Positions 33,024 to 36,316 of a stretch of 64,000 nucleotides of DNA are shown piece by piece. The first letter of the stretch is position 1. Each line of letters opens with the position of its first letter. Where the stretch lies: assembly GCF_053078305.1 (NCBI RefSeq), contig NZ_CP166879.1, one strand, 5' to 3'. The notes under the pieces were generated by a model. It did no database searches and had not been told where the DNA came from. It saw only the letters and a list, made by a program, of their open reading frames with translations. A program made the translations under genes and the position numbers.

Positions 33024-34514
33024 TCATGAACGGCTGTTTTTGTTCTGCTTATTGACATATAAACGCTCATCGGAAGCTTTATACGCATCATGTAACGTAT
33101 CGTTTTCTTTCATCGCGTAAATACCGGAAGAGAAGCCGATCTCTTTCTGCGGCGCGATATGTTGCAGACGTTTTTCGATACGTTCAGGCAGTTGTGATGC
33201 AATTTGCGGCGTCGAATCGACAAGAATGATGCAGAATTCATCGCCACCGAGTCGGATGGCATAATCACTTTTACGAATCGATTGTTTAATCGCCTGAGCT
33301 AACAACGTAATCGCTAAATCCCCTTCCTGATGACCGAGGGTGTCATTTATTAGCTTTAACTTGTCCATGTCAATTGCAATAAACATCACCGAAGAACCGG
33401 ATTGCACCAGTTTCTGCAACCGCTGCTCCAGTTCAGGGGTTAAAATTTTGCGATTATACAGTCCAGTCATCGCATCACTAATATTTTCTCGCGACACATT
33501 TTGGTATAAGCGGAAGTGCATCCGCACCATATTCAGCAAAATTAACGCCGTCAAAATCCAGAACAGAACGCTTTTCCACGAAGACGTGATAAAGTAAAGA
33601 ATATCAATGGATAACGAGACACGAATGCCGCCCGGTAAGTCATGGACGTAACTGACATACTGGAACAGATTATCTTCGCTCTGGTTGATGATAATGTCGC
33701 GCCCCGAATCTGTATCGGTTAGCGTGACATTGAGAAAACGCCAGAGGAGAGGGCGGTCATGAGTGTAAAAGATATTCCGCAGATTGTTTTTGTTAATATC
33801 CAGCAGCACAATCCCTTTTAGCTGCCCTGCAACATACACCGGCGTCAGCAAACTCATCACGTTCTGTTTAGTACGCTGATCCTGGTAAATGCTCGACAAT
33901 ACGGTACGCCCGGTAAATACCTTTTCAATATCTTTGCGATCGATGCCAATACTTCCTGACTGCAGGAAGGACCAGTTATTCATCGCAAAGTATTCAACAT
34001 TAACCGGCTCATAAAAATAGACATAGCGGTCATTGAGATCGAGATAATAGTGAAATTTCTCTTCGGCCATCCCAAGACCTGAACCGTAATCATCCTGGTG
34101 GCGGTTGCCTTCCACTGCCTGATCAAAAGCGGGTAATAGTGCTGCAGCTTCCACAATTGTGTCGCAGTCAGTGGATGCGGTTTGTAGTGTGCCGCGTAAG
34201 CCCGGGTATTTATGGGCAGTCAGGTTTAAGCCATGGGTATTATTGGCAGACTCAAAAGCCTCGCAGATGGCGCGCCGCTGTTCTGGCGACACTTCCGACT
34301 GCTCAGCAGCGAGAGCGCGCATCACATGCGCGGCAATACTCTGATTCTGATACTTATCATAAAGAAAGGAGGAGTCTGCTTTCTGCACGATATAGCGCAG
34401 ATAGGCACTCATTGCTCTGTCGCTGGCGACAAGTTCAAAAATAAGGAAGGAAGATGTCAGCACAATGACACTTGCGGCGATAAAATGCCGGAGCATTCTA
34501 TGGTGCAATTTCAT
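33024..34514 (-). CDS. dgcJ: Diguanylate cyclase DgcJ (membrane sensor + GGDEF)
   Basis: 496 aa from ATG 34512-34514; intact RLGGDEF motif; track ORF has 60 extra codons. Confidence 0.88.
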   Translation of the reverse strand: MKLHHRMLRHFIAASVIVLTSSFLIFELVASDRAMSAYLRYIVQKADSSFLYDKYQNQSIAAHVMRALAAEQSEVSPEQRRAICEAFESANNTHGLNLTAHKYPGLRGTLQTASTDCDTIVEAAALLPAFDQAVEGNRHQDDYGSGLGMAEEKFHYYLDLNDRYVYFYEPVNVEYFAMNNWSFLQSGSIGIDRKDIEKVFTGRTVLSSIYQDQRTKQNVMSLLTPVYVAGQLKGIVLLDINKNNLRNIFYTHDRPLLWRFLNVTLTDTDSGRDIIINQSEDNLFQYVSYVHDLPGGIRVSLSIDILYFITSSWKSVLFWILTALILLNMVRMHFRLYQNVSRENISDAMTGLYNRKILTPELEQRLQKLVQSGSSVMFIAIDMDKLKLINDTLGHQEGDLAITLLAQAIKQSIRKSDYAIRLGGDEFCIILVDSTPQIASQLPERIEKRLQHIAPQKEIGFSSGIYAMKENDTLHDAYKASDERLYVNKQNKNSRS

Positions 34515-34694
34515 GATAAATGGCACTCCTTCGGTTAGTGAAACGAGAAAACCAGATAAAGTTCGATTGCGGCCTGGCACAGGGGCGCTAATTATACTCA
34601 TCTCTGCGCCGCTGGGGAGGGGAAATTTAGGGGTAATAGTAATAAATTGTATGCAAAAGCCACGCAAAAAGCATGGCTCTGAATATTTTTGCAC

Positions 34695-36038
34695 TTAAAT
34701 ATGATGAATAATCACTTTGTTGCCCCCCTCGCTTTTCGCTTCGCGTAAGGCTTTATCTGCTTCCGTCATGACAAGCGAGATATTACGCGTGTCACCCGTT
34801 GAAAAAACCGTGCCAATACTGATGGTCATTTGTTCAGGAACATCATATCTGTTACTAAAGCCGGTCAGGAGTTCGACATTTTTACGCATACGTTCCGCAA
34901 TGATTTTTGCCTGGGCACTATTGAGTTCGGTAAATAGCAAGCCAAACACCTCACCCTCCAGTCGCGCTAAAATATCATCGGGGCGGATGCTTTGCTGGAT
35001 AATATCGACAATTGAAACCAGCACTTTATCACCCACACGATGTCCCCATTGGGCATTGATGCGTTTGAACTGATTAATATCAACCAGCATGACACAGAAG
35101 TCCTTAACAACAGGTCGCGACAATAATGACTCTACGCTGTTGAAAAAGTAGCGCCGATTGTAAATATTGGTCAGCACATCATGAACTGCCAGTTTGCTGG
35201 AGAGTTGCAGCTCCTGAAAAATGTTATAAATCAGAAAAGACACAACAAACAGTTTACTGGAGACTTCAATCCCGCGACTGATATACCAGATGGTATAATT
35301 ATACTCATCCAGAGTCAGTAGAAGTAAGTTGCAGCATAGCGATGCCAGACATAATAATGCTATTAACGGCCATAGTTCGCTGGCTAATCGTGTACGCATG
35401 ATAATAAAGAACAGTAAAAATGCCCACAGACAAACCAATATTTTTGTATAGTTGATTCCCCAGGTCGCAGTATGGTTGTCCGGACAGTAATCGACGACAT
35501 ACAAAGAATAGTCAGCGTTATAACTGCTCAGATTGTGTGCCAGAAGGGGAAAAACTAAAAAAGGAATCAGCGCCAGCAACAGAATGCCAGTTTTTTTCTT
35601 ATTGTTGTCAAGGATGTTGTCTTTTCCATAACAAAAGAGCGCCAGCGAGGTTAAACAAATAAAACTGAGTTGGCGGAAAATATAGAAAATAGAAACATCA
35701 TTCGACTTTGTCTGGATCAGTGTACTGCCGTTAATTGGTTTATGGATAATTACAATGGTTTCAACTAAATAGATAAGGCCACTTAAAAATGCAAGGCTTA
35801 AAATGAGTGTTGGTAAAATTTGTTTGTTAGTGAAATATTTCATTAACATGAAAAGAAAAATGACGGCGTTAAGGAAAAACAAAGCCACAACAACCATCAG
35901 GTAATTCATCTGTGGGATGAGTTTTACATTTGTGTTTTCGTTATATAAGGTAGTAATGCAAAATAAAATTAACGTCAGCAATAAACTGAAAATAAAAAAG
36001 CTTTGAGCTTTTAATTTTTGTGTACCCATAGAAACCAT
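34695..36038 (-). CDS. cdgI: Degenerate GGDEF-domain membrane protein CdgI (YeaI)
   Basis: 447 aa from first in-frame ATG; polytopic N-terminal domain; motif reads RLEGEVF instead of GGDEF; frame stays open upstream to 36284 with no ATG/GTG/TTG. Confidence 0.8.
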   Translation of the reverse strand: MVSMGTQKLKAQSFFIFSLLLTLILFCITTLYNENTNVKLIPQMNYLMVVVALFFLNAVIFLFMLMKYFTNKQILPTLILSLAFLSGLIYLVETIVIIHKPINGSTLIQTKSNDVSIFYIFRQLSFICLTSLALFCYGKDNILDNNKKKTGILLLALIPFLVFPLLAHNLSSYNADYSLYVVDYCPDNHTATWGINYTKILVCLWAFLLFFIIMRTRLASELWPLIALLCLASLCCNLLLLTLDEYNYTIWYISRGIEVSSKLFVVSFLIYNIFQELQLSSKLAVHDVLTNIYNRRYFFNSVESLLSRPVVKDFCVMLVDINQFKRINAQWGHRVGDKVLVSIVDIIQQSIRPDDILARLEGEVFGLLFTELNSAQAKIIAERMRKNVELLTGFSNRYDVPEQMTISIGTVFSTGDTRNISLVMTEADKALREAKSEGGNKVIIHHI

Positions 36039-36316
36039 AAAAAGGAGAGCAATGTGAGTGCTGGATTTTATTGATGGCAGAGATATATAGTTTTGACCAA
36101 GATCAATTTTCGTTAACGATAAAAAATATTTAAAGAATAACCCCAGGGAAATACGTGTTGACAGAATAATTTTTCCGAATGATTGTTTTCTGGAACTAAA
36201 TTGTGTAAAGGTTATGCTGTCATATTTAAAGCGATTGTAAGCTAATGTATGTAATAAATGAGATAATTTACAGTGAGCTAAAAATCAGCCAGGCGATAAT
36301 GACCCGGCTGATAGTT

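Follow-up and report, generated by a model that had tools for sequence, protein, structure and literature searches.

The DNA between positions 33024 and 36316 of the window, the term used here for the whole 64,000-nucleotide stretch analysed, is very probably best explained as a core locus of E. coli. It would encode DgcJ, a diguanylate cyclase of the AI-2-sensing type, and CdgI, whose gene would start in AT-rich DNA silenced by H-NS (the H-NS data are from K-12) and would have been inherited vertically since an ancient date. The locus is a known one and the finding is largely ordinary; published work already covers the genes and their domains, as well as the silence, the binding of H-NS and the flag of foreign origin based on composition. 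The original prediction, of a horizontally acquired and H-NS-silenced block carrying paralogous sensor modules, needs three corrections. The AT-rich signal is that of cdgI, the sensors are unrelated and acquisition, if there was any, would be ancient.

The block consists of dgcJ (yeaJ) and cdgI (yeaI), bracketed by yeaK and yeaH on the E. coli chromosome in the order yeaG-yeaH / cdgI - dgcJ / yeaK. Genes, order and neighbours are identical to those of cdgI (b1785) and dgcJ (b1786) in E. coli K-12, and the DNA is 99.6-99.9% identical to many sequenced strains. The features referred to below are as follows.

6304-7902, minus strand, pdeD (yoaD), CSS motif and EAL domain
27815-28840, minus strand, dgcP (yeaP), GAF and GGDEF domains
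33024-34514, minus strand, dgcJ (yeaJ), 496 amino acids, from annotation transfer and an intact open reading frame
34515-34694, spacer between cdgI and dgcJ, 180 bp, GC 0.45
34695-36038, minus strand, cdgI (yeaI), 447 amino acids counted from a conserved ATG
35471-36480, core AT-rich tract, formed by merging all 500-bp windows of GC below 0.36
35742-36045, inferred position of the yeaI promoter island (K-12 U00096.2 1868534, 304 bp)
36039-36316, spacer between yeaH and cdgI, the cdgI regulatory region, 278 bp, GC 0.327
36182-36209, minus strand, candidate cdgI promoter TTTACA-16-AACAAT, the sole sigma-70-like consensus match in the spacer
36284-36312, minus strand, intrinsic-terminator-like hairpin with an 11-bp stem, six G-C pairs and a T-run, just past the yeaH stop

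The start of cdgI merits comment. The RefSeq model, of 491 residues, runs on to 36170 with ATT as its 'start'. This is the codon annotated as the start in K-12, which reads ATT here and not ATG; the conserved ATG, recognised in a start-codon comparison of nine orthologues, comes 44 codons later. Translation is predicted to begin at an ATG at 36038 or 36029. On the far side of the 278-bp spacer yeaH starts at 36317. A terminator-like site was looked for in the 180-bp spacer between cdgI and dgcJ and none was detected.

With a GC content of 0.419, where the window as a whole has 0.493, the block is the minimum for its length in the 64 kb; only 0.3% of windows of that length reach as low, all of them overlapping the block, and the next lowest value is 0.441. 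To this extent the AT-richness predicted for the block stands, but it is carried by one half. The half containing cdgI and its spacer has a GC content of 0.380, that containing dgcJ 0.458 (14th percentile). With a value of 0.39 (z = -3.1; GC3 z = -1.9), cdgI has the lowest GC content among the 52 genes of at least 100 amino acids, and within it the part encoding the MASE4 domain (0.355) is lower than that encoding the GGDEF domain (0.445). The 300-bp minimum, 0.29 at 35731-36030, covers the first 300 bp of cdgI. The surrounding tract of about 1 kb is the deepest and longest of its kind in the 64 kb and would comprise the cdgI promoter region and the opening third of its coding sequence. The 278-bp spacer is AT-rich as had been claimed, although its GC of 0.327 is not outside the values spanned by intergenic DNA elsewhere in the window (mean 0.432, sd 0.074). 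For dgcJ the overall GC is 0.459 and GC3, at 0.513 (z = -0.3), is near normal; the N-terminal sensor region is ordinary (0.477) and the GGDEF end lower (0.439). The AT-rich signal is confined to cdgI and its spacer and does not extend to dgcJ. GC content sets the block apart from the window. Codon usage gives a mixed result, the GC3 of cdgI leaning low while CAI, at 0.36 and 0.34 for the dgcJ/cdgI pair where genes average 0.43 (sd 0.10), has z = -0.6 for dgcJ and -0.8 for cdgI. Codon adaptation is ordinary in both genes.

The tract overlaps a feature already described in K-12. Table 1 of Panyukov & Ozoline 2013 places promoter island 1868534_304 within yeaI (PMC3661553). This island is called foreign by three of five predictors (GIST, Nakamura et al., Lawrence & Ochman), IslandViewer and Price et al. 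being the exceptions, and is bound by H-NS in every ChIP study compared; deletion of hns increased the output of at least four islands, which the paper does not name (PMC3661553). We infer the position of the island in the window from a coordinate offset of approximately 1976-1979, for which the gspA/gspC island served as a check and which is good to a few bp, and the converted position coincides with the GC minimum. It is one of 78 listed E. coli promoter islands, a class that is AT-rich, covered by H-NS and transcriptionally inert (PMC3661553). Most of these are intergenic and linked to strain-variable foreign genes, whereas the yeaI island lies inside a core coding sequence conserved across the genus. 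The cdgI tract likewise resembles the gsp locus of K-12, a classical xenogeneically silenced genomic island, in being AT-rich and H-NS-bound. Unlike classical silenced islands, the cdgI locus has no mobility genes, tRNA or repeats, is not strain-variable and does not have a depressed CAI. The high-affinity H-NS motif TCGATAAATT, allowing up to two mismatches, is no commoner in the tract (1.4 per kb) than in the window (1.9 per kb), a result that is uninformative. A sigma-70 consensus scan gave seven sites where 9.1 +/- 3.6 were expected from shuffled sequences, so there is no excess; the density reported for the promoter island, which derives from a different algorithm, is not reproduced by such a scan. 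The description of the block as H-NS-bound, compositionally foreign DNA fits the 5' part of cdgI, for which there are published ChIP data, foreign flags and silence. It does not fit the block as a unit, given the normal GC3 of dgcJ.

Could the whole block nevertheless be an acquired, H-NS-silenced island, recent enough for its foreign composition to show? The block does have the lowest GC in the window, the three composition-based predictors do call yeaI foreign (PMC3661553), and the yeaH/yeaK junction is variable across the Enterobacteriaceae, with the two genes no more than 165 bp apart in at least 13 species and separated by unrelated inserts of 1-7 kb in others. In a scan of genome contigs for relatives, restricted to the best 80 of more than 591 loci, from which Salmonella is absent, at least 11 Citrobacter-type loci with a DgcJ of 64-67% identity are without cdgI. 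Against this, GC3 and CAI of dgcJ are normal. Within the species there is no strain variability: of 5426 complete E. coli genomes 5424 contain cdgI with its spacer, 5408 of them with at least 80% query coverage, and cdgI and dgcJ are each present in over 99.7% of the 5426 with ordinary polymorphism. Sampled full-length matches of cdgI are 98.3-99.9% identical, those of yeaH 98.0-100%. Comparison with three other Escherichia lineages gives a dS of 0.54-0.70 for cdgI, in line with 0.33-0.78 for yeaG, yeaH, dgcJ, yeaK and yeaL; neither cdgI nor dgcJ departs from its flanks. The dN/dS of cdgI, 0.08-0.10, shows purifying selection. There is no integrase, IS element or other mobility gene in the annotation, no tRNA was found in the 64 kb, and a search for flanking repeats returned just short, chance-level ones.

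Outside Escherichia the yeaH-cdgI-dgcJ-yeaK arrangement occurs in a few Citrobacter-like enteric lineages with CdgI proteins 57-77% identical, and in one such lineage the dN of CdgI (0.266) equals that of DgcJ (0.263). Spacers between yeaH and cdgI in the orthologous loci measure 281-299 bp with GC of 0.28-0.39. Among genera, in the loci covered, cdgI is restricted to Escherichia and these few lineages. The distribution of dgcJ is wider and patchy; within the best 80 of more than 591 loci its positional orthologues are 64-67% identical in Citrobacter and 44-47% identical in Kluyvera and the Klebsiella oxytoca group, which also counts against an acquired block. We regard the recent-island reading of the whole block as very improbable and already largely refuted. 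Since cdgI is a core gene and co-diverges with its flanks, the term 'horizontally acquired' can refer only to an ancient event, and these comparisons indicate vertical inheritance at this site throughout Escherichia. Ancestral presence would fit these data as well as an ancient acquisition. The gene cdgI is stably AT-rich, and its composition is no fading mark of a recent transfer.

DgcJ contains a transmembrane segment, a periplasmic GAPES1 sensor, a second transmembrane segment and an active-type GGDEF domain. The Pfam matches are to GAPES1 (PF17155, E = 6e-151, over the whole profile length) and GGDEF (PF00990, E = 1e-39), and by hydropathy residues 8-26 and 309-327 form the two hydrophobic segments. 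The region that had been described as a membrane domain is periplasmic, with a transmembrane segment on each side. The A-site is intact, as predicted, in the motif RLGGDEF and the I-site is RKSD. On the strength of this architecture DgcJ is predicted to be an inner-membrane diguanylate cyclase. The combination of GAPES1 and GGDEF is shared with Salmonella YeaJ (STM1283), an AI-2-sensing diguanylate cyclase for which synthesis of c-di-GMP from GTP has been published; AI-2 sensing through GAPES1 was shown for this protein and for the EHEC homologue, with Tyr210 and Asp239 as binding residues (PMC9637222). Both residues are present in the aligned DgcJ, assuming the same numbering as in Salmonella YeaJ. 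AI-2 binding, known for those two proteins, is predicted for the allele described here.

CdgI comprises a MASE4 integral-membrane domain (PF17158, E = 1e-48) with at least seven hydrophobic segments by hydropathy, followed by a GGDEF domain (PF00990, E = 8e-45) that is degenerate, again as predicted. The A-site reads EGEVF whilst the I-site, RPDD, is intact; both can be seen in RPDDILARLEGEVF. The protein binds c-di-GMP, is toxic on overexpression, is undetectable in standard conditions, is repressed by CsrA and has an N-terminal domain that is also present in DgcT and DgcX (PMC5635695). Knockouts of yeaI in strains CFT073 and BW25113 give biofilm or motility phenotypes, and so cdgI is not always silent.

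The closest parallels are the MASE4-GGDEF diguanylate cyclases DgcT (YcdT) and DgcX, the architecture of which matches CdgI. Over its full length (449 residues) the CdgI alignment with DgcT shows 37% identity (E = 1e-100), and DgcT is its full-length paralogue. The dgcT gene has a GC profile like that of cdgI (0.386 overall, 0.351 N-terminal and 0.444 C-terminal) and is likewise reported to be unexpressed and CsrA-repressed (PMC5635695). The two differ at the A-site: GGEEF in DgcT is active, whereas CdgI, with EGEVF, is a c-di-GMP binder and not a synthase. A homologue with 46% identity and a GC of 0.288 is found in a Salmonella houtenae prophage, and another, 41% identical, adjoins pgaABCD in Enterobacter. 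CdgI belongs to the MASE4-GGDEF family of DgcT and DgcX, some members of which are thus carried on mobile DNA.

These assignments bear on the proposal that the cdgI/dgcJ pair is the product of a tandem duplication, with sensor modules that are paralogous. The genes are adjacent and co-oriented and each encodes a GGDEF domain. The sensors, however, are unrelated, one being the periplasmic GAPES1 and the other the integral-membrane MASE4. BLASTP aligns DgcJ and CdgI over 153 residues at 28% identity, the GGDEF domain alone, with no significant match beyond it; this similarity does not exceed that of either protein to DgcP, DgcF or DgcT, and it is DgcT that CdgI matches from end to end. A tandem-paralogue origin, scarcely credible on these grounds, is refuted by the domain assignment.

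The wider cluster was also considered. The genes pdeD (with its EAL domain), dgcP, dgcJ and cdgI do lie together within the approximately 30 kb predicted, the exact span being 29.9 kb. Treated as four independent genes, their clustering has P of about 0.02; when the adjacent dgcJ-cdgI pair is counted as one unit P is 0.29. The four sensor domains all differ (the CSS motif in PdeD, GAF in DgcP, GAPES1 in DgcJ and MASE4 in CdgI), and the position of dgcP is independently conserved across many genera. The cluster was on these grounds rejected as meaningful, and the four neighbours are unrelated beyond their catalytic domains.

How might cdgI be kept off in standard conditions? The H-NS-bound, transcriptionally inert tract, a terminator after yeaH and repression by CsrA may act together. 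The hairpin that follows the yeaH stop would act as an insulator between the yeaGH operon and cdgI. Rfam identified no RNA family in the region. The protein so kept switched off would be one that is toxic when overexpressed and still binds c-di-GMP through its I-site.

There remains the matter of why cdgI stays AT-rich. In the window and seven orthologues, eight sequences of eight, the first 134 codons have a GC of 0.32-0.34 and a GC3 of 0.37-0.43. The composition of this 5' part is constant even in Citrobacter-like hosts, where the genes on either side have a GC3 of 0.57-0.67, and despite saturated synonymous sites and proteins just 57-62% identical. We suggest, tentatively, that the AT-rich 5' tract may be a selectively maintained silencing platform rather than a relic of transfer; it is possible, but we would not lean on it.

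A different account dispenses with foreign origin and sees the AT-richness as an equilibrium to which the amino acid composition of a polytopic membrane domain and AT-biased mutation in a weakly expressed and weakly constrained gene both contribute. The cdgI deviation is indeed strongest at the first two codon positions (z = -2.9 and -2.4) and weaker at the third (-1.9), with CAI ordinary, and each of the four MASE4-GGDEF genes compared has a GC 0.05-0.09 lower in its MASE4 part than in its own GGDEF part. The gene evolves fast, with a dN/dS some 10-20 times that of yeaH; the constancy of composition among orthologues with saturated synonymous sites is likewise compatible with an equilibrium. 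However, the other polytopic membrane proteins of the window have GC of 0.45-0.53 and a GARP fraction of 0.23-0.34, compared to 0.143 for CdgI. The Enterobacter homologue, of identical fold, has a GC of 0.486, so that a MASE4-GGDEF fold does not demand AT-richness. GC3 is depressed as well (0.38 in the first 134 codons of cdgI), and there are family members on a prophage and next to a pga operon. We judge this equilibrium unlikely to be the explanation.

If the 5' tract is indeed a maintained silencing platform, then selection on DNA composition within a coding region would keep H-NS on the gene for a toxic, c-di-GMP-binding GGDEF decoy. The gene is in itself a clean case of a compositionally 'foreign' sequence that has not drifted toward the composition of its host over genus-level time, a case that bears on the use of AT-richness as evidence for recent transfer.

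The window is 99.6–99.8% identical to E. coli chromosomes, and the 5.3-kb segment around dgcJ-cdgI is found in 5424 of 5426 complete E. coli genomes. Gene calls were carried over from the annotation of the best-matching genome and of K-12, and the intactness of each ORF was then confirmed in the window, giving the following assignments.

6304-7902, minus strand, pdeD
27815-28840, minus strand, dgcP
32478-32981, minus strand, yeaK
33024-34514, minus strand, dgcJ
34695-36038 (from ATG), or to 36170 in the RefSeq model, minus strand, cdgI
36317-37600, minus strand, yeaH
37713-39647, minus strand, yeaG

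The block under study, 33024-36316, and its 278-bp spacer were delimited exactly in the original prediction, taking the cdgI ATG at 36038. The RefSeq model of 491 aa begins at ATT (36168-36170) in this strain; the corresponding K-12 codon is ATG. In six other cdgI orthologues the frame upstream of the assigned start closes within 10–40 codons, and five of the six have no canonical start codon there. Comparison of these sequences points to the ATG at 36038 (36036-36038), or that at 36029, as the conserved start, which would give 447 aa; no obvious Shine-Dalgarno sequence lies upstream. A terminator-like hairpin is present 3′ of yeaH at 36284-36312, so cdgI should rely on its own AT-rich promoter region. 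Elsewhere, pncA (nicotinamidase; 54031-54528, minus strand) lacks 144 bp relative to strain ES5 at 54388/54389, an in-frame deletion of 48 codons that leaves an open frame of 165 codons as opposed to 213. The sRNA sroD (18227-18312, plus strand; Rfam RF00370, 115 bits) overlaps both the fadD 3′ end and the beginning of the fadD-rnd spacer.

The block had been described as AT-rich in the dgcJ and cdgI membrane-domain regions and in the 278-bp spacer. Its GC content is 0.419 against 0.493 window-wide, and only 0.3% of windows of the same size are as low, every one overlapping the block; the lowest that does not overlap it, starting at 49499, has 0.441. The signal is unevenly spread, with 0.380 in the cdgI half and 0.458 (14th percentile) in the dgcJ half. 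The cdgI gene (0.384 as modelled by RefSeq, 0.391 when read from the conserved ATG) has the lowest GC among the 52 window genes of at least 100 aa (z = −3.1, relative to the window's genes); dgcJ has 0.459 (z = −1.15). GC at third codon positions (GC3) is 0.427 for cdgI (z = −1.9) and 0.513 for dgcJ (z = −0.3). Codon adaptation, measured against 30 ribosomal and elongation-factor genes, does not set the block apart: the CAI is 0.34 for cdgI (z = −0.8) and 0.36 for dgcJ (z = −0.6), with a window mean of 0.43 (sd 0.10). The GGDEF parts are alike (cdgI 0.445, dgcJ 0.439) and the N-terminal sensor parts are not, with 0.355 for the MASE4 membrane domain of cdgI and 0.477 for the periplasmic GAPES1 domain of dgcJ. 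The window's longest and lowest AT-rich tract spans 35471-36480; within it, GC over 300 bp drops to 0.29 (35731-36030). The cdgI spacer, at 0.327, falls inside the intergenic range of the window (mean 0.432, sd 0.074). Of the two measures proposed as a check on the prediction, GC departs from the window average and codon adaptation does not. The AT-richness is real, but it belongs to cdgI and its promoter and not to dgcJ.

The finding is already known. The 78 'promoter islands' catalogued by Panyukov & Ozoline (2013, PMC3661553) are AT-rich, are bound by both RNA polymerase and H-NS, and yield nearly no transcript. One, 1868534_304, sits inside yeaI (cdgI); old K-12 coordinates convert with an offset of about 1976–1979, checked on the gspA/gspC island, which would place it at approximately 35742-36045 in the window, on the GC minimum. 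H-NS binds it in all the studies compared (Grainger, Kahramanoglou, Oshima), and it is classed as foreign by Nakamura et al., Lawrence & Ochman and GIST but not by IslandViewer or Price et al. (PMC3661553). For the first part of cdgI, the proposed association with H-NS is thus borne out by K-12 data already published.

Two further tracts of the same AT-rich kind occur in the window. The first, 751-1410, is the mntP-yobD intergenic region (300-bp minimum 0.297), where a promoter island is also listed (PMC3661553); a match to the Mn2+ riboswitch (yybP-ykoY) at 772-868 on the minus strand scores 40.1 bits, under the Rfam gathering score of 45. The second, 12061-12700, has the highest count per kb of near-matches to the H-NS motif and contains the 421-bp yoaC-yoaB intergenic region (12197-12617), which at a GC of 0.325 lies below every other intergenic region of the window. 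The ydjL-ydjE stretch (45226-53938), in which the segment with GC 0.441 falls, is moderately AT-rich (ydjJ to ydjE: GC 0.42–0.48, GC3 0.42–0.48), and ynjI (61531-62571) has 0.409.

Protein composition accounts for part of the AT-richness of cdgI. Among 16 window proteins compared, including the polytopic membrane proteins, CdgI has the highest FYMINK fraction (0.345) and the lowest GARP fraction (0.143), and in all MASE4-GGDEF genes examined the MASE4 part is 0.05–0.09 below the GGDEF part in GC. It is not the whole answer, because GC3 is only 0.38 over the first 134 codons, the window's other membrane-protein genes range from 0.45 to 0.53 in GC, and an Enterobacter CdgI homologue next to pgaABCD has 0.486, so that the fold tolerates normal composition. 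The family also circulates in low-GC mobile DNA, as judged from E. coli DgcT (0.386) and a MASE4-GGDEF protein with 46% identity to CdgI in Salmonella enterica subsp. houtenae (GCA_002035495.1; locus L092, 5001-6332), whose gene (GC 0.288) is flanked by those for a serine recombinase and a terminase large subunit in what looks like a prophage. Recent transfer without amelioration would be a simple explanation for cdgI. The stability of its 5′ composition argues against this: in 8 of 8 sequences (the window and seven orthologues) the first 134 codons have GC of 0.32–0.34 and GC3 of 0.37–0.43, also in hosts with flanking-gene GC3 of 0.57–0.67 and where synonymous sites are saturated. Two options are left: the gene may be weakly expressed and at neutral equilibrium, or selection may keep H-NS bound.

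A YeaH-anchored scan of species-representative genomes, with 10-kb flanks and neighbours mapped by tblastn, covered the best 80 of more than 591 loci, all 80 from Enterobacteriaceae. The yeaH-yeaK junction is variable: the genes are at most 165 bp apart in 13 loci (Enterobacter, Yokenella, Trabulsiella, Pluralibacter and others), and other junctions carry 1–7 kb of unrelated genes. It is a hot spot of variable content in loci L011-L085 (downstream of yeaH, from position ~11280 onward), holding from ~105 bp to over 7 kb of unrelated ORFs; a 256-aa ORF on the opposite strand recurs in several Citrobacter and Superficieibacter loci. Directly upstream of yeaK, DgcJ is 95–98% identical to that of the window in Escherichia, 64–67% in 11 Citrobacter-type loci and 35–47% in nine loci from Kluyvera, the K. 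oxytoca group, Pseudocitrobacter and Cedecea. CdgI was found only in the five Escherichia loci of the 80 (86–90%). Beyond these, a protein search with context look-up recovered the order yeaH-cdgI-dgcJ-yeaK with CdgI 77%, 62% and 57% identical, one being named Citrobacter sp. Awk 4; there DgcJ is 63–68% and YeaH 94–98% identical.

Within E. coli, cdgI and its spacer are present in 5424 of 5426 genomes, and full-length matches sampled across the ranking share 98.3–99.9% identity, similar to yeaH (98.0–100%) and dgcJ (98.6–100%). Strain NCCP 13717 has an IS1 insertion in cdgI and strain AZ 186 lacks nearly all of it. Between Escherichia lineages dS is 0.54–0.70 for cdgI, 0.42–0.78 for dgcJ and 0.33–0.75 for the neighbours yeaG, yeaH, yeaK and yeaL, with dN/dS of 0.08–0.10, 0.03–0.04 and 0.002–0.04, respectively; at a Citrobacter-like locus (L091) dN is 0.266 for cdgI and 0.263 for dgcJ. 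cdgI is functional yet fast-evolving. A tRNA, flanking repeat or mobility gene was looked for and none is present. Taken together, distribution, conservation in E. coli, dS like that of the neighbours and the lack of these signatures indicate that both genes are long-standing, vertically inherited residents. Horizontal acquisition, as predicted, is tenable only as an ancient event, not a recent one, given that both genes occur in over 99% of E. coli with dS like the flanks. If acquired, cdgI arrived before or around the Escherichia-Citrobacter divergence, with losses afterwards; alternatively, it spread through ancient homologous replacement.

Pfam assigns GAPES1 and GGDEF to DgcJ, MASE4 and GGDEF to CdgI, GAF and GGDEF to DgcP, and a CSS motif and EAL to PdeD. 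The motifs had been read correctly: DgcJ has GGDEF with an RKSD I-site, CdgI a degenerate EGEVF with an RPDD I-site. The suggestion of paralogous sensor modules is wrong, as DgcJ and CdgI align only over the GGDEF domain (153 residues, 28% identity) and CdgI aligns over its full length with DgcT (37% identity, E = 1e-100). Membrane-domain regions describe only CdgI, with at least seven hydrophobic segments in its first 245 residues; in DgcJ two such segments enclose a periplasmic domain about 280 residues long. For Salmonella YeaJ and the EHEC homologue, Li et al. (2022, PMC9637222) showed AI-2 binding by GAPES1 together with activation of c-di-GMP synthesis; by alignment, assuming the same numbering, the key AI-2 residues Y210 and D239 are both in the DgcJ of the window. 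Clusters of MASE4-only proteins (281–345 aa; P0015, P0024 and P0025 among the hits) have 249–934 members, and a 532-aa protein (P0027) combining MASE4, GAPES1 and GGDEF resembles a cdgI′-′dgcJ fusion. Four of approximately 29 GGDEF/EAL genes do lie inside 29.9 kb (P ~0.02 under random placement), but with the adjacent dgcJ-cdgI pair taken as one P is ~0.29, and a functional cluster is without evidence. The position of dgcP is kept in many genera without dgcJ and cdgI.

CdgI is a c-di-GMP-binding protein with an N-terminal domain also found in DgcT and DgcX, and it interacts with several other GGDEF domains; it is repressed by CsrA, is below detection in standard conditions and is toxic when overexpressed (Sarenko et al. 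2017, PMC5635695). A ChIP-seq peak of the prophage-encoded regulator AppY at K-12 position 1871229, inside cdgI (PMC10057817), might be a clue to when the gene is induced.
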